DNA of 64,000 bases from the NCBI RefSeq assembly GCF_030013595.1, contig NZ_CP122768.1; one strand, given 5' to 3'. Positions 42,969 through 52,144 of this stretch are shown one piece after another; within the stretch, counting starts at the first letter, position 1, and each line of letters starts with the position of its first letter. Both the position numbers and the translations under genes were made by a program. This DNA is from Escherichia coli (GTDB lineage Bacteria; Pseudomonadota; Gammaproteobacteria; Enterobacterales; Enterobacteriaceae). Under the pieces are notes generated by a model, which saw nothing but the letters and a program-made list of their open reading frames with translations, was not told the origin of the DNA and made no database searches.

Positions 42969-44375
42969 TTACAGCCGTTCTTGAATAAGTTTGCCTAATT
43001 GTTTAACCGCCTGTTCTTCACGTTCTCCCCACTGCCACGCGGTATTAAAACGGAAAAAACGTGACCAGTTTTCACCGGTAGAAAACATTTTACCCGGCGC
43101 AATACTGATATGATGCGCCAGTGCCGCCAGGCTTAATTCGCCCGCATCTAACGGTTCGGGAAGCTCCAGCCAGAGAAAATAACCGCTGTCATTATGATGA
43201 ATTTTCACTTCCGCAGGCAGATAACGCAGCAGTGCTTGCCAGGCACGTTGTTTACGTTCCGCAAGCTGGCGACGCAGGCGACGAAGATGGGCGTCGTATC
43301 GGCGCGTGGAAAGGTAATCCACCAGAGCAAGCTGCATCGGTGAGCTGGTGGAAAGCGTACTCATCAACTGCAAGCGTTGAATTTTACGTGCATGTTTTCC
43401 GGCGGCGACCCAACCAATACGAAAACCAGGCACCAGACATTTCGAAAACGAAGAGCAATGCAAAACACCATCGTGGTGATCCCACGCTTTCGCAGGCAGC
43501 GGTTTTTCCCGTCCAAAATAAAGTTCGCTGTAAACGTCATCTTCAATCAGCGTTACGTTGTACTGATTGAGCAACGCTACCAGCCGCGCTTTTTTCTGCG
43601 GCGTTAAGGTAAATCCGAGTGGATTCTGGCTATTAGTCATCAGCCAGCACGCTTTCACTGGATACTCCTGCAACGCCAGTTCCAGCGCCTTGAGATCAAT
43701 CCCTTCTTTAACGTCCGTCGCCACCGATAACGCCTTCAGCCGTAACCGCTCCAGCGCCTGCAACGCGCCGTAGAAACAAGGATTCTCTACTATCACCCAA
43801 TCGCCCGGTTCAGTGACCGCTTGTAAACTGAGGTTTAATGCCTCTAACGCCCCGGCGGTAATGACAATTTCATCAGGAGAAATAGTGATGCCCTGTAAGG
43901 CATAGCGACGAGCAATAGCCTGACGCAGTTCTGCGTTTCCTGGCGGTAAGTTTTCAATCACGCTCATCGCCGTGGCGGTTTTGCTTACCTGCGCCAGCGA
44001 GCGGTTTAGTTGTTGGAGGGGGAAAAGTCGCGGGTCGGGAAAGGCCGAGGCAAACGGAACTACCGACGGATCGCGACTGGCCTGCAACATATCAAAAATA
44101 TAGGTGTTGATATCGACTGCTTCATCTCGAGTGACAGGAATGACTGGCGCTTTCGGCATTTTTATTGCCTGTGGCGCAACGTAATAACCCGACTGCGGTC
44201 GAGCGATAATATGTCCCTGACTTTCGAGCAACTGATAGGCATGGCTGACAGTCATAAAGCTCATGCCAGAAAGCGCCACCTGGTCACGCAACGAAGGCAA
44301 ACGATCGCCAGGTTGCCAGATACCCGACGCAATCTGCTCGCGTAATTGTTCTGCAAGCTGCTGGTATTTTTTCAT
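42969..44375 (-). CDS. ydcR: MocR/GntR-family regulator with aminotransferase domain YdcR
   Basis: 468 aa; N-terminal HTH plus PLP-dependent aminotransferase-like domain. Confidence 0.85.
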   Translation of the reverse strand: MKKYQQLAEQLREQIASGIWQPGDRLPSLRDQVALSGMSFMTVSHAYQLLESQGHIIARPQSGYYVAPQAIKMPKAPVIPVTRDEAVDINTYIFDMLQASRDPSVVPFASAFPDPRLFPLQQLNRSLAQVSKTATAMSVIENLPPGNAELRQAIARRYALQGITISPDEIVITAGALEALNLSLQAVTEPGDWVIVENPCFYGALQALERLRLKALSVATDVKEGIDLKALELALQEYPVKACWLMTNSQNPLGFTLTPQKKARLVALLNQYNVTLIEDDVYSELYFGREKPLPAKAWDHHDGVLHCSSFSKCLVPGFRIGWVAAGKHARKIQRLQLMSTLSTSSPMQLALVDYLSTRRYDAHLRRLRRQLAERKQRAWQALLRYLPAEVKIHHNDSGYFLWLELPEPLDAGELSLAALAHHISIAPGKMFSTGENWSRFFRFNTAWQWGEREEQAVKQLGKLIQERL

Positions 44376-44453
44376 TATCGAATCGTAATTATGTGCAGAT
44401 GATTCGGCAGTCTATATCAGTTGTTAAAAATGACAACTTTTCGTTAACTGTAA

Positions 44454-44558
<105 letters not shown>

Positions 44559-44573
44559 TTTAGGTTTCCCTAA

Positions 44574-44579
44574 TATAAT
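44574..44579 (+). promoter_or_regulatory. Candidate -10 hexamer (TATAAT) upstream of the first moron gene
   Basis: Perfect TATAAT about 30 nt upstream of ATG 44610; -35 not convincing. Confidence 0.3.
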
Positions 44580-44609
44580 GCCCCCACAATAACACGAGGG
44601 GGTACAACA

Positions 44610-44996
44610 ATGTTCAATATCATGATTCGTAAATTTGGCGAGATGACTTTCGAGAAAGCTGGTGTTGCTCGTACCGAAGAAGAAGCAATGGCCTTAGTTC
44701 TGGTAGCACTGAGATCATCACCTGAGATTATCGACGCTGAATATGTAGCTGCTGAGGGTGAGATTAAAGAGATTAAAGCGGTGGCTAAGGAATTAGGTGT
44801 TAAAGGTTTCCGTAAGCTGAGATTGAATCGTGAGACTTATGTAATTGGACAGCAAGGACAATACCTAGATGAGAATACCGTGATTGTTCTACTGAATAAG
44901 ATTACCCGCTACGGTTGGAAGATTGAGCAATATAAAACGTGTTTCGAATTATACGAAAAAGGTTTGCTGGATACTCTGACCATCGTTCGCGCTTAA
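44610..44996 (+). CDS. Hypothetical protein, prophage moron
   Basis: 128 aa, strong RBS (gaggggg), own terminator downstream; no family recognised. Confidence 0.6.
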   Translation: MFNIMIRKFGEMTFEKAGVARTEEEAMALVLVALRSSPEIIDAEYVAAEGEIKEIKAVAKELGVKGFRKLRLNRETYVIGQQGQYLDENTVIVLLNKITRYGWKIEQYKTCFELYEKGLLDTLTIVRA

Positions 44997-45010
44997 TTAA
45001 TTTCTAATTT

Positions 45011-45037
45011 GGTGGGTGTAATTCCCACCGCTTTTTA
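45011..45037 (+). terminator. Rho-independent terminator
   Basis: ggtggg tgtaatt cccacc followed by GCTTTTT. Confidence 0.65.
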
Positions 45038-45053
45038 AACTGGAGAATCAAAC

Positions 45054-45134
45054 ATGTTAGCTTTTATCTCATTCGTGGGAGGTAGTCTCACAACTATGAT
45101 TAGTCTTTCTTATCTTGTCGTTAGTATGGGGTGA
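45054..45134 (+). CDS. Small hydrophobic peptide (26 aa)
   Basis: MLAFISFVGGSLTTMISLSYLVVSMG; GGAG RBS; below the ORF-track length cut-off. Confidence 0.3.
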   Translation: MLAFISFVGGSLTTMISLSYLVVSMG

Positions 45135-45137
45135 GCA

Positions 45138-45263
45138 ATGAAACAATTTCATGATGGCATTTCATCTAAGACATTCAAGAAAGAATATAGCGGATTGTGT
45201 ATTAACTGGATTGATTTGATTGGTGCGGTTGTGTTTGGTCTGGTAATTAGCATCAATTTTTAA
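45138..45263 (+). CDS. Small membrane peptide (41 aa) with C-terminal TM segment
   Basis: MKQFHDGISSKTFKKEYSGLCINWIDLIGAVVFGLVISINF; starts 3 nt after the previous small ORF. Confidence 0.35.
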   Translation: MKQFHDGISSKTFKKEYSGLCINWIDLIGAVVFGLVISINF

Positions 45264-45304
45264 CGATATAAATATATCGTAATTCATTCAAAGAGGATTC
45301 AATT

Positions 45305-45646
45305 ATGAAAAAGACTATCTACGCAATTATTGTTTCTGTGTGTGTTGGTGGCATCGGTGGATTTGTTTGTGGGTATGACTATTCCGATACTCAACATCAA
45401 GAGACTATCCGGTCAAATAAGGCCGAGATTAAGGATCTGAATCAGGAGATTAGCCAGTTAGAAAATGCTCTCTCACTCAAAGACAGTGAATATAGCGAGG
45501 TTTATGCAGATAAACAAAAATATTGGAAAGAGAAAGATAATCTCGTTGTTTACGGGATGAAATTGTGTAAGAGCATGAAGGACGAGCGCAGTTGTTTAAT
45601 GGAACTTGCCCTTAAAGGTAACGTGACCATCGACTTCAAAGACTAA
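45305..45646 (+). CDS. Membrane-anchored coiled-coil protein
   Basis: N-terminal TM (IYAIIVSVCVGGIGGFVCG) then coiled-coil-like region; AGAGGA RBS. Confidence 0.55.
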   Translation: MKKTIYAIIVSVCVGGIGGFVCGYDYSDTQHQETIRSNKAEIKDLNQEISQLENALSLKDSEYSEVYADKQKYWKEKDNLVVYGMKLCKSMKDERSCLMELALKGNVTIDFKD

Positions 45647-45675
45647 TTAATTCAAATAACAAAGAGGATTCTATT

Positions 45676-45921
45676 ATGAAAAAGATTATCGCTGGTATCG
45701 TTCTTGCTCTGGGTTTGGTTGGTGCTGCAAATGCCGAACAATATGTACAGGGTGATAGTGTCAAGCGTGCTGCCGTTGCACCTTCTTTAAATCAACTGTG
45801 TACTGAATTAGCACAGGTTGCCGGAGTTGGTGACGATGACGACTTTATTACTGCGTGTGTGTGGAGTCATATCGAGGATATTAATAAACGTGATGCAAAA
45901 CTAACTGGAAAGAAATATTAA
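45676..45921 (+). CDS. Small secreted protein (signal peptide, two Cys)
   Basis: MKKIIAGIVLALGLVGAANA/EQY...; RBS context near-identical to the previous gene. Confidence 0.55.
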   Translation: MKKIIAGIVLALGLVGAANAEQYVQGDSVKRAAVAPSLNQLCTELAQVAGVGDDDDFITACVWSHIEDINKRDAKLTGKKY

Positions 45922-45932
45922 TGACTTACTAA

Positions 45933-45975
45933 CCAATGCCCCTATCGTTATAATACACGGTAGGGGCGTTTTTGT
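45933..45975 (+). terminator. Rho-independent terminator before the recombinase gene
   Basis: ccccta ... tagggg stem followed by CGTTTTTGTTTGG. Confidence 0.55.
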
Positions 45976-45986
45976 TTGGAAATGGT

Positions 45987-47666
45987 ATGAAAACTAAACT
46001 ATATTCGTATATTCGCTTCTCGTCTATGCGTCAGAATGATGGTTCGAGTTATGAACGGCAAATCAGGATGGCGAGAGAGGTTGCGGCAAAGTATGACCTT
46101 GAACTGGTAAATGATTATCAGGATCTGGGTGTATCTGCGTTTAAGGGTGCTAACTCTAAAACAGGGGCGCTATCTCGTTTCCTTGATGCAATTGGTAGAT
46201 CCGTTCCTGTTGGTAGCTGGCTATTCATTGAAAACTTGGACCGCTTATCCCGTGCCGATATTGTCAGTGCGCAGGAGTTATTCCTTTCAATCATCCGTAG
46301 GGGAATAACCATTGTTACTGGCATGGATAACAAGATCTACTCGCTGGATACTGTTACCGCTAATCCGATGGACCTGATGTTCTCCATCCTTCTATTCATC
46401 CGTGGTAATGAGGAAAGTCAGACTAAGCGCAATCGTACTAACTCAAGCGCATTGATTAAGATTAAAGCTCATCAAGAAAATCCCCAGAATCCGGCAGTGG
46501 CAATCGAGGAAGTTGGAAAGAATATGTGGTGGACTGATACCACATCTGGTTATGTGCTTCCTCATCCGGTCTTCTTCCCTATTGTTCAGGAAGTTGTGGA
46601 ATTACGCAGGAATGGACGGTCAACCGCCGAGATACTGGATCACCTTAACGCGACATACACACCACCACCAGCCGCAAGTCACAAGAGGCATTCAAACTGG
46701 TCACGGGCAATGATTGAAAGGTTGTTCCATACCCGCGCTTTGATTGGTATCAAGGAAATCTCTGTAGATGGCGTTAAGTATGAGTTAAAGGATTATTATC
46801 CTCGTGTGCTAGATGACGCTGAGTTTTATCACCTTAAGAAAAGCATTGGTGTTAGAGCATGTAACTATGGAGACAAGGAAGAAGTTAAACCGATCCCCCT
46901 GCTTAGTGGTGTTAATCTGCTGAAATGTGATCATTGCGGTTCCGCTATGGTTAAGGTGAAAGGAACAAACAGACGGCCTAACCAATATCGTTATTCATGC
47001 GATGCAATGCGCTCTAGTCGTATTGAATGTGTGCATACAAACTGGAGTTTTCGCGGCGACCAATTAGAGAAAGCTGTATTGCAATTGCTGGCTGATAAAA
47101 TCTGGATTGCTGAAGATAAGGCTAATCCGGTTCCGGCTTTGAAAGTACAGATTGATGAAATATCACGCAAGATTGATAACCTGATTGCCCTTTCTGCTAT
47201 GACAGGAGCAACGAAGGAGCTAGCCGATCAGATTACTACCCTCAATAGCGAGCGTGAAACACTCTACAATCAGATCAAGATGGCAGAAGAGGAAATGTAT
47301 TCTGTGGACTCTCAAGGCTGGGAGAAGCTCGCAGAATTTGATTTAGAAGATGTTTACAACGAGGATCGCATTAAGGTCCGGTTTAAGATTAAGCAAGCTC
47401 TAAAACGGATCGGGTGTAGCAGGATTGACAAGTACAAAAACTTGTTTGTACTGGAATACATCGATGGCAAGACCCAGAGAGTTGTAATAGAAAATTCAAG
47501 AGGACCGAGGAAAGGCCGGATCTTCGTTGATTTGAAGACTATCAATGATAGGCAGATTCTGGAGAGTAACGGGCTTGTTCTGCATCCATGTTTAGACATG
47601 CTGACAGATAAGAACTGGAAACCAGAAGAGGAAATACCAGGTCCATTACAGGAATTTGGAATTTAA
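45987..47666 (+). CDS. Large serine recombinase (probable prophage integrase)
   Basis: ATG at 45987 (track start 45972 is TTG); N-terminal resolvase catalytic region (LYSYIRFSSMRQ), zinc-ribbon-like Cys cluster, C-terminal coiled coil. Confidence 0.8.
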   Translation: MKTKLYSYIRFSSMRQNDGSSYERQIRMAREVAAKYDLELVNDYQDLGVSAFKGANSKTGALSRFLDAIGRSVPVGSWLFIENLDRLSRADIVSAQELFLSIIRRGITIVTGMDNKIYSLDTVTANPMDLMFSILLFIRGNEESQTKRNRTNSSALIKIKAHQENPQNPAVAIEEVGKNMWWTDTTSGYVLPHPVFFPIVQEVVELRRNGRSTAEILDHLNATYTPPPAASHKRHSNWSRAMIERLFHTRALIGIKEISVDGVKYELKDYYPRVLDDAEFYHLKKSIGVRACNYGDKEEVKPIPLLSGVNLLKCDHCGSAMVKVKGTNRRPNQYRYSCDAMRSSRIECVHTNWSFRGDQLEKAVLQLLADKIWIAEDKANPVPALKVQIDEISRKIDNLIALSAMTGATKELADQITTLNSERETLYNQIKMAEEEMYSVDSQGWEKLAEFDLEDVYNEDRIKVRFKIKQALKRIGCSRIDKYKNLFVLEYIDGKTQRVVIENSRGPRKGRIFVDLKTINDRQILESNGLVLHPCLDMLTDKNWKPEEEIPGPLQEFGI

Positions 47667-47727: not shown

Positions 47728-48245
47728 AATTTAATTGCGTTAGGCAGCGTAAGCAAGTTTCATAGTAGTTTCCTCTAAAATAATAAGTTCACTACTATTT
47801 ATCAGAGAAAATTGTCTTACTATTGCATTCTCTATCTGGATGTGGGTATAGGCGGGATTGAATACGGCAAAACTGAAACATTCCACTACTGCAATAAATC
47901 ACTAAACAATATAAAGAATATTGCAAGTGTGGAGTGGAACTAATGCAAGATATTAAAATTCATTTTCAAGATTACAGTTTCGTTAAGGTTGATTGCTCTC
48001 CTTCTATCGGAATGGAATTAAGAGATTATTTCTCGTTTGAGGTTGAAGGGGCTAGGTTTAGCCCCCGTTACAAGTATTCTGGCTGGGATGGACGAATAAG
48101 ACTGTTTACGCATGAAAACACCCTACCAATTGGACTATTAAAAACGTTGGGTGTCTTCGTTAAAAATATGGGCTATTCAGTCTGGATTGACCCCAGATTG
48201 CTTGAGAAGGAAGATGTAACCAAAGACGCGATTAATGAATGGATT

Positions 48246-48254
48246 GATTCCTTA
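48246..48254. repeat. IS1 target-site duplication, left copy (gattcctta)
   Basis: Identical 9-mer at 49022-49030. Confidence 0.85.
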
Positions 48255-48309
48255 GGTGATGCTGCCAACTTACTGATTTAGTGTATGATGGTGTTTTTGA
48301 GGTGCTCCA

Positions 48310-48585
48310 GTGGCTTCTGTTTCTATCAGCTGTCCCTCCTGTTCAGCTACTGACGGGGTGGTGCGTAACGGCAAAAGCACCGCCGGACATCAGCGCTATC
48401 TCTGCTCTCACTGCCGTAAAACATGGCAACTACAGTTCACTTACGCCGCCTCTCAGCCCGGTACGCACCAGAAAATCATTGATATGGCCATGAATGGCGT
48501 CGGATGTCGCGCCAGTGCACGCATTATTGGCGTTGGCCTCAACACGATTTTCCGCCACTTAAAAAACTCAGGCCGCAGTCGGTAA
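48310..48585 (+). CDS. insA: IS1 InsA
   Basis: [43 protein letters not shown]. Confidence 0.9.
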
Positions 48586-49007
48586 CCTCGCGCATACAAC
48601 CGGGCAGTGATGTGATTGTCTGCGCTGAAATGGACGAACAGTGGGGCTACGTCGGTGCTAAATCACGTCAGCGCTGGCTGTTTTACGCGTATGACAGGAT
48701 GCGGAGGACGGTTGTGGCGCACGTCTTCGGTGAACGCACTCTGGCCACACTGGAGCGTCTTCTGAGCCTGCTGTCGGCCTTTGAGGTCGTGGTATGGATG
48801 ACGGATGGCTGGCCGCTGTATGAATCACGCCTGAAGGGAAAGCTGCACGTTATCAGCAAGCGTTATACTCAGCGCATTGAGCGGCATAACCTGAATCTGA
48901 GACAACATCTGGCAAGGCTGGGACGGAAGTCACTGTCGTTCTCAAAATCGGTGGAGCTGCATGACAAGGTCATCGGGCATTATCTGAACATAAAACACTA
49001 TCAGTAA
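48504..49007 (+). CDS. insB: IS1 InsB reading frame (expressed as InsAB by frameshift)
   Basis: Overlaps insA in the -1 frame; IS1 transposase C-terminal portion. Confidence 0.85.
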
Positions 49008-49021
49008 GTTGGAGTCATTAC

Positions 49022-49030
49022 CGATTCCTT
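49022..49030. repeat. IS1 target-site duplication, right copy (gattcctta)
   Basis: Identical 9-mer at 48246-48254. Confidence 0.85.
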
Positions 49031-50211
49031 AGAAGTGTATTCCGGTAGCAATAAAATCAATCCTTATTGGTATCAAAGGGAGGCAGTCTTTCAGGGTATC
49101 CACAATCGCCGTAGAATGCTGGTTCTTCCTACCAGTGCCGGAAAGTCATTGATTGCTTGTATGCTGTCTCGTTGGTACTTAGAGAACTACACCGGAAAAG
49201 TGTTAATCATTGTTCCGACTACATCGCTAGTGGTTCAAATGAGGGATGATTTCATCGATTATAGGCTATTCCCTTATGAAGCAATTCATACAATGATGAG
49301 TGGTAGCGGGAAACATCCGGGAGACAGGTTAATCACGGTTAGTACCTGGCAATCAGCTTGCAAGATGCCTCCTGAATGGTTCCGACAATATGGAATGTTG
49401 ATAGTTGATGAATCGCATAAGGCTAGTGCCAAAAATATTACCAATATCATCAATGGAATGAATCATTGCCAATTTAAGATCGGCATGACTGGTTCCCCGA
49501 AAGAATCAAAGTGCCATTTAATGCAGTATGTCGGGCTTTTCGGTGATATTTCTAAGATCGTGAGTATTGACCGCCTGATGGAAGAAGGGCAGGTGACAAA
49601 ACTGAAAATTAACTGTCTTTTCCTTCGTTATACAGATGAGGAATGTAGCGCGGTTAAGGGGCGAGAATATGCGGAAGAGATCAAGTATATTACGTCTAAC
49701 CCACGACGAAATAAGTTTGCTTGTAATTTGGCGCTAAAACTAGCTAAGAAGGGCGAAAACGTATTCCTGATGTTCCGCAATACTAAGCACGGAAAACTTA
49801 TGTATGATGCGTTACAGAAGGTACACGACAAGGTTTATTATATTGACGGTGGAGTTAAGACAGAAGAACGTGATGAATTTAAGAAAATGGCGGAGGGTGA
49901 CACCGGGATCATTTGCGTTGCATCCTATGGTGTGTTCTCTACTGGTGTTTCAATTAAGAATTTGCATCATGTTATTTTCGGTCATCCAGTGAAGGAATCA
50001 ACTATCGTTCGTCAGAGTATCGGTCGTGCATTGCGTAAACATGGTTCTAAGGATATTGCAACGGTCTGGGATCTTATAGATCATCTGTGTATATTCGGTC
50101 GTAACGGAAAAGTCAAGCATAAAAATTATGCGGTAAAACATGCACTTGAGAGAATCCGCTATTATCTAACCGACAAGTTCAGCTATGCAACTAAAACAAT
50201 TGCTATATAAC

Positions 50212-50244
50212 AAAAAAGCGCCCACTAGAGGCGCTTTAATTTTA
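50212..50244. terminator. Bidirectional hairpin terminator between the convergent helicase and M15 peptidase genes
   Basis: aagcgcc cactaga ggcgctt, A-run upstream and T-rich downstream. Confidence 0.6.
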
Positions 50245-50595
50245 TCCATTCCATCGTGATTTTTTCGATCTGGAATCGATATGCGTAAAGGTTTTATATT
50301 TGCCTAAGCCGTATTGAGTAGGATATTTCCCATCAAGATAAGCATGGACAATATCAGGGGAGACACCCTTGATCACAATGTCAGCCGCACGGCCTCGAAC
50401 GTGATAGCTGTTGGTTGCACCGCCTACATTCTTGTTATGAGTCGGGCAACGGTTGCCACTGTTAATAATCACTGGTTTACCGAAGTGCTCTCGTACATCC
50501 TCAAGAATTACCAGTAATTCAGCGTCGATTGTATCATAATCACATTTTCCGCATTTACATTTAAATTCCTTGCGAGAAAAATGCTTACTTAACAT
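50242..50595 (-). CDS. Peptidase M15-family (zinc D-Ala-D-Ala carboxypeptidase fold) protein, possible phage cell-wall hydrolase
   Basis: 117 aa with SYHVRGRAADI and HxH-type motif; GGGGG RBS. Confidence 0.6.
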   Translation of the reverse strand: MLSKHFSRKEFKCKCGKCDYDTIDAELLVILEDVREHFGKPVIINSGNRCPTHNKNVGGATNSYHVRGRAADIVIKGVSPDIVHAYLDGKYPTQYGLGKYKTFTHIDSRSKKSRWNG

Positions 50596-50604
50596 ATTAC
50601 CCCC

Positions 50605-50952
50605 TTAGATCATTTCGAAGATATAACCAATAAAGCGCATACCCTTGATATAATAAGGAGCAGTGCCTACACACACCGCGCGTGCATCGCCCAGACAGTT
50701 AAAGCTATAAGGATTAACTACATCGACTTCTTGCCCTACACGAAAACGATATTTAGGACGTTTAGCCAATGTAGCGACACAAAACACGGTCCCTTTTTCA
50801 TGATCGCGGATACATTCTTTATATTGTTTATGTTTAACTCTCTTCGCCTCAAAATCATGTGTCATGGATTCTGGGCTAATGCCATTGATAAAAATACCGG
50901 AAAGCTGGTCGACCGGATAAGTAGGAAATTCAGTAAAAATATTTTTAGCCAT
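50605..50952 (-). CDS. Hypothetical phage protein
   Basis: 115 aa, GGGGG RBS, no recognisable family. Confidence 0.5.
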   Translation of the reverse strand: MAKNIFTEFPTYPVDQLSGIFINGISPESMTHDFEAKRVKHKQYKECIRDHEKGTVFCVATLAKRPKYRFRVGQEVDVVNPYSFNCLGDARAVCVGTAPYYIKGMRFIGYIFEMI

Positions 50953-50990
50953 GTTATACCCCCATAAGATTCTATGAGGGTATTTATTGA

Positions 50991-51674
50991 TTAAACGTAT
51001 TTCATGCGCGATTTAATGTGCTTATTGATGTTTTCAAGCATCATTGCTTCGTTGCTTTCCCACGATCCTAGCGTCGAATAACGAGTAGAAATTTTATCCG
51101 ACTTAACGGCAACAATTCGCTTACTCTGTTTCTGTATGCGTTTCTCTAAGCGACGTTTTGCCACCGCCGATCCATTCTTAGCGCGTTTGGTTCGGGATTT
51201 CTTAGGCTTGTACTTCTTCATGATAAAAGTCCCTTCCTGGTTCTCTACCTTGATGAAGTTGCCATTTTCGATGTTACGCATCATCTTACCGCCTTTGATG
51301 GCCTTAATGTTCCCGTGGGCGTCTAAGACCTTACCGTTGGCAATTGGCACTAGCTTATTGATTTTGCCACCATCGAAATAGTGTTTCAGATAGTCATCCT
51401 GACTGCCGATCTTCTTGTCCTTATCCCTTGCGCCCTTGATGAAGATTTGGTGTCTCGTCCCTGAACGGTTCTTGTAGTTGGTATTACCTACAGCTTGTTG
51501 AGTCCAGCGAGTAGGTCTATCAACATTCTTGTTAATCTTCTTCTGGAGTGCTCTGGAAGCAAAGATCGCCCCTTCCCCTATCGCCTTTTCGAATGTATCG
51601 GTTGCTTTATCAGACCATTGGCGTAACGCTTTCTTAGTCCTTAGAGCGTTTCGTTTATTGGTACTGGTTGCCAT
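50991..51674 (-). CDS. Highly basic hypothetical phage protein
   Basis: 227 aa, Lys/Arg-rich C-terminal half; GGGGG RBS. Confidence 0.5.
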   Translation of the reverse strand: MATSTNKRNALRTKKALRQWSDKATDTFEKAIGEGAIFASRALQKKINKNVDRPTRWTQQAVGNTNYKNRSGTRHQIFIKGARDKDKKIGSQDDYLKHYFDGGKINKLVPIANGKVLDAHGNIKAIKGGKMMRNIENGNFIKVENQEGTFIMKKYKPKKSRTKRAKNGSAVAKRRLEKRIQKQSKRIVAVKSDKISTRYSTLGSWESNEAMMLENINKHIKSRMKYV

Positions 51675-51675
51675 G

Positions 51676-51846
51676 TTAGCCCCCTAATAACGAAAAGACC
51701 CCCGCCAGTGTCCTTAGCAATTGTTCATCCACGGTCATAGCCGGGAGTTCAAGCCCAAAGGACGTTAGCAGAGGTCTAATTGCTACGTTATAAGTGAGGG
51801 CGACAATCAAGAGATAACCAAAATATTTCTTAAGTTTATTCTTCAT
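51676..51846 (-). CDS. Small membrane protein (56 aa)
   Basis: ATG at 51846 with GGGGTG RBS (track start is TTG); one TM segment. Confidence 0.4.
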   Translation of the reverse strand: MKNKLKKYFGYLLIVALTYNVAIRPLLTSFGLELPAMTVDEQLLRTLAGVFSLLGG

Positions 51847-51865
51847 ATATTCACCCCTTTTATTA

Positions 51866-52144
51866 TTATTTTTGTCTGAGTAAATCGATAACTTGGTCAA
51901 ATTTAGCGTCCATCGCAACCACTTTCTTTTCTATACCGTGAAGGGTTTGTTCCATGCGATAAACTCTCTCGGCGATCTGGTCGTGGTTATTCTGCATTGT
52001 TTCAAACTTCTGATTAAACAATGCATCATTGGACTCTAATTTCGACAATCTATTTTCTGTGGCTAATTGATTTCGGTGAAGTCTCCATAATCCACCACAA
52101 ATTAAGGCGATAACACCGATACCGCCATATATAATTTCAGTCAT
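51866..52144 (-). CDS. Membrane-anchored coiled-coil protein, holin/spanin-like by architecture
   Basis: N-terminal TM (IIYGGIGVIALICGGLW) then coiled coil. Confidence 0.45.
   Translation of the reverse strand: MTEIIYGGIGVIALICGGLWRLHRNQLATENRLSKLESNDALFNQKFETMQNNHDQIAERVYRMEQTLHGIEKKVVAMDAKFDQVIDLLRQK

Follow-up and report, generated by a model that had tools for sequence, protein, structure and literature searches.

We analysed a 64-kb window (64,000 nt) of the Escherichia coli contig NZ_CP122768.1 that carries, on its plus strand, two small open reading frames (ORFs) in tandem within a prophage inserted in hicB. The prophage DNA begins at about 44566, and the pair lies between the attachment site attL and the gene of a large serine recombinase, which is taken to be the prophage integrase. 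ORF1 encodes 26 amino acids (MLAFISFVGGSLTTMISLSYLVVSMG) and ORF2 encodes 41 (MKQFHDGISSKTFKKEYSGLCINWIDLIGAVVFGLVISINF), exactly as in an earlier reading made from the letters alone (in the following called the sequence-only reading), which had noted them as unannotated, small and hydrophobic and had named type I toxins and phage membrane modulators as classes of that size. The GGAG ribosome-binding site assigned to ORF1 is present, and ORF2 does start 3 nt past the end of ORF1 (spacer GCA), in the same frame. The block around this Shine-Dalgarno sequence, TGGAGAATCAAACATG, is kept among E. coli variants. All coordinates are collected in Table 1.

The mere presence of two such ORFs is not beyond chance, because nine ORFs of at least 20 amino acids, in various frames and on both strands, overlap the interval 45054-45263; the pair was judged by comparison with relatives and not by presence alone. 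These overlapping frames, together with the missing gene call in the RefSeq annotation by PGAP, would suit an explanation by chance ORFs, in which the interval is a non-coding regulatory spacer with a terminator and a leader and neither ORF is translated. PGAP annotates nothing in the 308-bp gap holding both ORFs in 57 of the 57 E. coli genomes that carry the gap. The term unannotated is correct for these genomes but not for a few GenBank records and assembly gene calls, in which ORF2 appears as a hypothetical protein of 40-41 amino acids.

What raises the pair above chance is its conservation in related prophages, which the sequence-only reading had made the touchstone and which is clearly present. 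ORF2 is intact in all loci with its motif (about 40 loci with 21 distinct DNA sequences), and ORF1 is intact in all of these except locus L021, where a 1-nt deletion in a T-run shifts the frame. A degenerate pattern for the first 15 codons of ORF2 matched 26 prophage contigs in IMG/VR, and an independent search with the recombinase recovered all 26 of them and two further contigs that break off upstream of the recombinase gene; among the contigs with both the recombinase and upstream DNA, ORF2 was found in 26 of 26. It is always located on the recombinase strand, 5′ of the recombinase gene. Both ORFs are still there in the most divergent E. coli allele (L003, 78% DNA identity) and in two loci with a second ORF1 allele (L005 and L006, MKLLELLILSIFSAFVLAVYIVVIV), and the indel in ORF2 of L003 and L005 is an in-frame change of 3 nt.

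Salmonella prophages integrated at ycdX, with recombinases 70-75% identical to that of the window, also keep both ORFs; two recombinases of the Salmonella type are identical to proteins named Salmonella enterica. ORF1 ranges from 25 to 27 amino acids in the E. coli and Salmonella relatives (for example MSVLISFASAVFITILSFVYMVVNAA in Salmonella), and the Salmonella ORF2 homologues share the sequence M[KR]QFH[DE]GISSKTF, followed by a variable helix and a SINI end. In a relative from Edwardsiella tarda (L076), whose recombinase is 60% identical, a 46-amino-acid ORF2-like ORF with an ISSKTY motif and a C-terminal helix (MINKDFVAVVDEEISSKTYQRARPGVRGSDLVALIGFTAIATLSIF) is the sole ORF between attL and the terminator preceding the recombinase gene. 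An exhaustive ORF2 profile search in 1.84 billion representative proteins yielded only nine matches, all representatives of the ORF2 family, and genomic context was inspected for four of them, each of which is situated immediately 5′ of a serine recombinase gene. Degenerate ORF2 patterns had zero matches in two scans of species-representative genomes, and a word-index search with the Edwardsiella variant found nothing. For neither ORF was there a family at E ≤ 1 in Pfam, PHROGs, NCBIfam or PADLOC, or a match in a sequence profile search of the PDB.

We further compared the substitutions in the aligned ORFs. For ORF2, the pooled ratio of non-synonymous to synonymous variation (pN/pS) is 0.34 in the sense frame against 0.47-1.14 in the other five frames; for ORF1 the corresponding values are 0.53 and 0.62-1.43, the sense frame being the lowest of the six in both cases. 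The variable sites of ORF2 are distributed 18/14/28 over codon positions 1/2/3. Between E. coli and Salmonella, codons 1-15 of ORF2 differ synonymously at Gln3, Gly7, Ser9, Ser10 and Thr12 (4-5 positions), and the only non-synonymous steps counted there come from a TCT-AGC switch at Ser10 that leaves the residue unchanged. More distant ORF2 sequences add synonymous changes of His, Ile and Thr codons and a conservative Lys-to-Arg exchange at codon 2. Serine switches occur in ORF1 as well, from TCN to AGT at Ser6 and likewise at Ser17. Judged from these alignments, the substitution pattern is the product of purifying selection at the protein level, which argues against an overlapping constraint at the RNA level. 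The bias toward third codon positions speaks against chance ORFs, as does the fact that length, frame and start of both ORFs are kept across DNA down to about 50-60% identity, whereas neither the other frames nor the antisense ORFs are preserved (one antisense ORF, for instance, is truncated in L009). An origin by chance is therefore extremely improbable. By their conservation both can be regarded as genuine genes for small hydrophobic proteins of the prophage, as originally supposed; we consider it very likely that ORF2 is a real gene and likely that ORF1 is one.

ORF1 contains no charged residue, has a grand average of hydropathy (GRAVY) of 1.62 and is predicted to form a single membrane helix. 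Its family consensus is MSxLISFxxxxxxTxxSFVYxVVxAx, with S6, F7, T14, S17, V19-Y20 and V22-V23 conserved. ORF2 consists of two parts. Residues 1-19 are polar (GRAVY −1.18) and basic at KTFKK, with a nearly invariant sequence MKQFHDGISSKTFKK, and residues 20-41 form a hydrophobic helix of 20-22 residues that reaches the C-terminus (GRAVY 1.97) and ends in SINF; the hydropathy profile supports the C-terminal membrane segment proposed earlier. Invariant positions are M1-H5, G7-K14, L27, G34, L35 and S38-N40. According to the positive-inside rule, basic residues flanking a helix mark its cytoplasmic side. Because the basic residues of ORF2 are N-terminal to the helix, its N-terminus is placed in the cytoplasm, and ORF2 is predicted to be tail-anchored, with the conserved 15-residue N-terminus at the cytoplasmic face of the membrane and the C-terminal helix within it. 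As both ORFs are in one frame in the E. coli allele, a fusion of the two is possible, and one natural read-through fusion was identified (P0004, ENA contig, 68 amino acids), in which the TGA is changed to TGG (…SMGWAMKQF…). An N-out/C-in orientation of ORF1, the fused protein then being a helical hairpin, would be compatible with P0004.

The ORFs are embedded in an operon. In Salmonella, ATGA overlaps connect the upstream gene with ORF1, ORF1 with a 62-amino-acid gene, this gene with a 75-amino-acid secreted-protein gene and the latter with ORF2, or ORF1 with ORF2 directly. Because these overlaps link the two ORFs to each other and to the flanking genes, the pair belongs to the operon. The other genes are exchanged between relatives: upstream of ORF1, genes for 128, 89, 71 or 80 amino acids, for a lipoprotein or for an OmpW/OprF-like barrel are found; zero to two genes lie between ORF1 and ORF2, and zero to two, mostly encoding signal-peptide proteins, follow 3′ of ORF2. 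From this comparison, the constant core of the operon is ORF1, ORF2, the terminator and the recombinase gene, and the surrounding genes are interchangeable cargo, mostly encoding secreted, lipoprotein or outer-membrane proteins. In L003, a third small hydrophobic ORF of 27 amino acids with a strong ribosome-binding site (MKQVIACASVLLVTVYCSAGLVWVIAH, 2812-2896) was observed between ORF2 and the secreted-protein gene.

Table 1 Features around the ORF1/ORF2 pair in the window (strand relative to the strand shown).
Feature	Position	Strand	Description
ydcR	42969-44375	-	host gene, then 3′ remnant of hicB
Phage-derived half (P' arm) of attL	44566-44595	+	from junction alignment, hicB-site vs ycdX-site prophages
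First gene of the att-proximal operon	44610-44996	+	128 amino acids, phrog_14908; position occupied by other genes in relatives
Terminator-like hairpin	45010-45030	+	GGTGGG-TGTAATT-CCCACC, then CTTTTT; 7 pairs, 5 of them G-C; directly 5′ of ORF1
Shine-Dalgarno sequence of ORF1	45042-45045	+	GGAG, 8 nt 5′ of ATG
ORF1	45054-45134	+	ATG 45054, TGA 45132-45134; 26 amino acids
ORF2	45138-45263	+	ATG 45138, TAA 45261-45263; 41 amino acids
Perfect palindrome	45264-45279		CGATATA-AA-TATATCG; directly after the ORF2 stop codon
Variable cargo gene	45305-45646	+	113 amino acids; N-terminal membrane helix and coiled coil; only in some relatives
Variable cargo gene	45676-45921	+	81 amino acids; cleavable-looking signal peptide MKKIIAGIVLALGLVGAANA, two cysteines
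Intrinsic terminator, strong	45935-45970	+	directly 5′ of the recombinase start; loop TTATAATA at 45948-45955
Large serine recombinase gene	45987-47666	+	559 amino acids; Resolvase, Recombinase and Zn_ribbon_recom domains

This operon coupling bears on the suggested type I toxins. The type I toxins Ibs, Ldr, Hok and TisB are hydrophobic single-helix peptides of 18-50 amino acids that are often missed by annotation. ORF1 and ORF2 resemble Ibs, Ldr and Hok-type toxins in size and hydrophobicity (GRAVY 1.62 for ORF1 and 1.97 for residues 20-41 of ORF2), and one or both could be imagined as a toxin that depolarises the membrane and whose translation is repressed by an antisense RNA encoded in cis. 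Three Salmonella loci indeed contain a minus-strand match to a promoter (TTGAAA-16-CATCAT, 9/12) in ORF2 codons 5-14, antisense to the ORF2 start. The same site scores only 8/12 in E. coli and at most 7/12 in L067-L071 and L076, the interval 45054-45263 of the window has no promoter-like site on its minus strand, and the numbers of promoter-like matches in these regions are close to the shuffle expectation. Moreover, synonymous sites vary freely beneath the putative antisense promoter. The antisense RNA that the sequence-only reading had proposed to look for thus found no support in the promoter scans, which gave no conserved antisense promoter, or in Rfam, where an E-value scan of 44000-46500 returned chance-level matches only, located elsewhere than the ORFs. 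Through the ATGA overlaps the pair is tied to genes for cytoplasmic and secreted proteins in a single operon, which leaves no stand-alone toxin mRNA, and the canonical GGAG 8 nt upstream of the ORF1 start is unlike the normally blocked translation of such toxins. In contrast to the known toxin genes, the pair shows fixed synteny with the integrase gene and is not a repeated or mobile intergenic cassette. A type I toxin-antitoxin system is therefore very unlikely here. We favour, with some reservation, the reading that ORF1 and ORF2 are genuine small membrane proteins, translated together from the integrase operon, and not a toxin-antitoxin pair. As small phage membrane proteins they are of a familiar kind that annotation has overlooked, and their family has no curated description.

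Looking at the transcript, two terminators precede the recombinase gene. The hairpin directly 5′ of ORF1 had been described as a rho-independent terminator, which is appropriate for the window with its CTTTTT tract, but the T-run is missing in L005 and L006, and the stem is kept in L005 by a paired change (GCGGG/CCCGC). The hairpin is conserved in the loci compared, and by the same comparison its function as terminator is not universal. A separate ORF1 promoter between this hairpin and the start codon was considered and rejected, as the space is only 23 nt and contains the Shine-Dalgarno sequence. The strong terminator preceding the recombinase gene has a loop that is invariant in E. coli, Salmonella and Edwardsiella, with covarying stems. 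In L007 and L009, the TATAAT in this loop scored as −10 element of a plus-strand promoter (10/12), and a separate promoter for the recombinase gene may lie within the terminator.

The position of this terminator raises the question of whether the ORFs serve as regulatory leader ORFs, with the translation of ORF2, or of whichever ORF comes last, tuning read-through into the recombinase gene and the peptides themselves being functionless. In minimal arrangements (L008, L009, L021 and L076), only about 5-16 nt separate the ORF2 stop codon from the terminator stem, behind which the recombinase gene starts at once; in the window, it is the last cargo gene that stops 13 nt 5′ of the same hairpin, and ORF2 is located 5′ of the recombinase gene without exception. 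However, a leader has no need for a conserved membrane helix and an N-terminal motif that is kept through synonymous changes and serine switches, and ORF2 is kept apart from the terminator by one or two cargo genes in the majority of E. coli variants (by two in the window). When both strands of 44997-45310 were folded, only two local hairpins emerged (z = −2.6 and −1.9), with no larger conserved RNA structure and no antiterminator pairing, and the TATAAT in the terminator loop suggests that the recombinase gene may be transcribed separately. We consider functionless leader peptides unlikely; the translation of ORF2 may have a secondary effect on terminator read-through.

Next to the ORF2 stop codon follows a perfect palindrome, which is kept wherever a cargo gene follows ORF2 and is absent where ORF2 abuts the terminator. 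Its symmetry is preserved in L007 by a double substitution (CGTTATA-AA-TATAACG), and it may serve as a binding site for a protein or form a small RNA hairpin, marking the point of cargo insertion. A boundary repeat, TAATTCA...AAGAGGATTC(A/T)ATTATGAAAAAG, precedes each cargo gene (45280-45313 and 45647-45684 in the window). Because the same block also lies 5′ of different cargo genes in relatives, it suggests cassette exchange by recombination at conserved ribosome-binding regions.

In place of the 81-amino-acid cargo gene of the window, relatives carry secreted proteins of 75, 82 or 137-139 amino acids. The 113-amino-acid protein has only weak matches to Rz-like spanins (E = 0.0024) and to coiled coils, and this neighbour counts among the arguments for a lysis-related function, in which ORF1 and ORF2 would be a holin/antiholin pair or lysis regulators. 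Holins and their regulators are small phage membrane proteins, and holins typically carry a charged C-terminal tail. The Edwardsiella relative has, in addition, a T4-spanin-like gene adjoining the recombinase gene. Neither ORF has such a tail, ORF1 ending in VVSMG and ORF2 in VISINF, and all holins known to us are longer than 26 and 41 amino acids. There is no match to a PHROG of the lysis category, and the window has a separate lysis cassette with small flanking genes at approximately 50242-52144, among the tail and lysis genes that follow 3′ of the recombinase gene on the minus strand; its endolysin gene (M15 peptidase, approximately 50242-50595) is on the opposite strand, about 5 kb from the ORFs. 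A role in lysis is thus quite unlikely.

To investigate where transcription of the operon might begin, the attachment site attP was rebuilt by joining the attR and attL sequences of three strains; attR sequences were taken from relatives (L012, 10569-10640, minus strand; L072-L075). The reconstructed attP is about 57 bp long and bounded by outer inverted repeats, GTGTTATTGGGGG ... CCCCCACAATAACAC. In the hicB-site strain it contains TTGACT-17-TATAAT, matching the sigma-70 consensus in 11/12 positions, and in the two ycdX-site strains TTGACT-18-TATCAT or TATGAT (10/12). On their own, attL and attR yield various matches of 8/12 or less, and no other promoter-like match in the window region is above 9/12. 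Five attR sequences that differ elsewhere all contain TTGACT, and nearly all attL sequences compared, from E. coli and Salmonella, have a TAnnnT hexamer at the −10 position. In the window, the P' arm of attL holds the TATAAT hexamer (44574-44579) and the outer inverted-repeat arm CCCCCACAATAACAC, and the first gene of the operon starts about 30 nt past this phage-derived arm. In the circular form, the gene upstream of attP ends in a strong terminator, and the attP promoter would therefore begin the operon.

These sequences suggest a sigma-70 promoter that would be complete only in the excised circular genome, with the −35 element on the P arm and the −10 element on the P' arm. Integration would split it, the −35 element going to attR and the −10 element staying at attL. 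The operon appears to be driven mainly by this excision-specific promoter, and ORF1 and ORF2 would be produced mostly from free phage DNA, following infection or excision, with expression falling along the operon at the hairpin before ORF1 and at the terminator before the recombinase gene.

Promoters specific for the excised state are known from ICEKp1 (P3′end) and ICEclc (Pcir), both integrative and conjugative elements (ICEs) (PMC13023037). A further example is the joint promoter of TnpX in Tn4451/Tn4453 (PMC13023037, with reference to Lyras and Rood 2000). Like the candidate at attP, these promoters read into the recombinase-proximal end and are active or complete only when the element ends are joined (PMC13023037), and Tn4451 also encodes a large serine recombinase. 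In contrast to these transposons and ICEs, the element studied here is a tailed prophage whose hexamers straddle the attP crossover, the first products of its transcript are small proteins, its recombinase gene is placed behind two terminators, and the promoter is proposed from a consensus match.

Made from the free genome, the two peptides would act at the membrane on a host component or on a component of an incoming phage; most plausibly they would block the entry of superinfecting phage DNA or modulate a host inner-membrane protein, and they would not be self-poisoning toxins. Modulation has parallels in E. coli itself, where KdpF, AcrZ, MgtS, MgrB and CydX are single-helix proteins of 25-50 amino acids that bind a larger membrane protein. 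ORF2, with its short conserved soluble tail beside a variable helix, resembles this mode of action. Those proteins, however, are chromosomal and encoded or regulated together with their targets, whereas the ORFs are phage-borne and linked to an integrase gene.

The other parallel is superinfection exclusion. Both ORFs are small, have predicted membrane helices and lie between attL and the recombinase gene in every relative, in keeping with this class. Sie2009 of the lactococcal phage Tuc2009 and Ltp of the Streptococcus thermophilus phage TP-J34 are small membrane-associated exclusion proteins encoded in lysogeny modules, and they counter the DNA of incoming phages at the cytoplasmic membrane (PMC7693887, PMC3952083). 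ORF1 and ORF2 are likewise small and predicted to be membrane-associated, they belong to an integrase/lysogeny module, and the cargo nearby is envelope-directed. They share no sequence similarity with either protein and differ in architecture, since the N-terminus of Sie2009 is hydrophobic and Ltp belongs to the lipoproteins, while ORF2 is C-terminally anchored and ORF1 has only 26 amino acids. Because the cargo genes are envelope-directed and Sie2009 and Ltp lie in lysogeny modules, our tentative preference for the specific function is superinfection exclusion or the modulation of an inner-membrane protein of the host, an assignment by analogy that is itself doubtful. Of the classes named by the sequence-only reading, the phage membrane modulator remains the most plausible, but its type I toxin alternative is unsupported.

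Several observations weigh against the interpretation as membrane proteins of the integrase operon with such a function. The function is drawn solely from size, hydrophobicity, position and analogy, and no family match in Pfam, PHROGs, NCBIfam, PADLOC or the PDB links the ORFs to a characterised exclusion protein. The selection on ORF1 is only moderate (pN/pS 0.53), and ORF1 is absent from the Edwardsiella tarda locus L076 and dispensable there. In the window, the hairpin separates the first operon gene from ORF1, and transcription of the ORFs needs read-through. The attP promoter is a consensus match that may partly reflect an integrase-binding sequence. If it is real, its splitting upon integration would leave the ORFs weakly expressed in the lysogen (the promoter-like match is 8/12 at attL vs 10-11/12 at the reconstructed attP), unlike known exclusion genes such as ltp, which are expressed from the prophage.

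No gene other than ORF2 accompanies the integrase gene all the way from E. coli to Edwardsiella, and for this reason a reading in which ORF2 controls the integrase is kept open. ORF2 would then be a membrane-tethered partner of the integrase that signals an excised or free genome and controls the activity, direction or localisation of the enzyme. Made mainly from the promoter reconstituted at attP and acting through its cytoplasmic peptide, it would favour integration after infection or prevent re-integration after excision, with ORF1 as an accessory helix. We regard this as highly unlikely. A recombination directionality factor in the usual sense is also held unlikely, as all such factors known to us are soluble proteins. 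If ORF2 were an integrase partner, it would represent a control factor of a kind new to serine integrases, and because these enzymes are widely used tools, an accessory factor would be of practical interest.

Small membrane proteins are systematically missed by genome annotation, and the ORF pair is a clear and well-supported case. Its fixed link to the integrase gene makes it a cheap and well-defined target for studies of phage exclusion, the establishment of lysogeny and integrase control. The prophage family is found in pathogenic E. coli (enterotoxigenic E. coli (ETEC), Shiga toxin-producing E. coli (STEC) and O55:H7), Shigella, Salmonella and Edwardsiella, but none of the phages in the collection searched (50,697 records) is a cultured member of it. 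Here megablast with the DNA of the region gave no match, tblastn of ORF2 gave noise only, and tblastn of the recombinase gave partial alignments with about 36% identity at best and full-length matches of at most 31%. This collection holds no isolated phage of the family, and we found no description of the prophage or of its ycdX and hicB integration sites in the literature.

The element is present in hicB or ycdX in 57 of 5426 complete E. coli genomes. The ycdX site is used in L002, L004 and L005 and the hicB site in the window, L001 and L006, with recombinases 92-99% identical across both sites. The hicB and ycdX attB sequences have TTT(A/G)GG(T/A)TT(G/C)CC in common, and the reconstructed attP lengths differ by one base. 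Insertion into hicB (window 44454-44573; L012 10038-10568) divides this gene, its 5′ portion remaining next to hicA at attR and its final 40 codons being left at attL. An IS1 copy (approximately 48270-49024), 100% identical to plasmid copies of IS1, splits a UvsW-like helicase gene (47934-50210) into fragments of 115 and 391 amino acids, and because of this interruption the prophage of the window may be defective. The 128-amino-acid first gene of the operon resembles in its N-terminal half the Salmonella 62-amino-acid protein encoded between ORF1 and ORF2 (…EPEIIDVK…) and in its C-terminal half the 80-amino-acid first gene of L007 (…KALGIKGFRKLKL…); it has the appearance of two modules joined into one, which the Salmonella relatives encode as separate genes.

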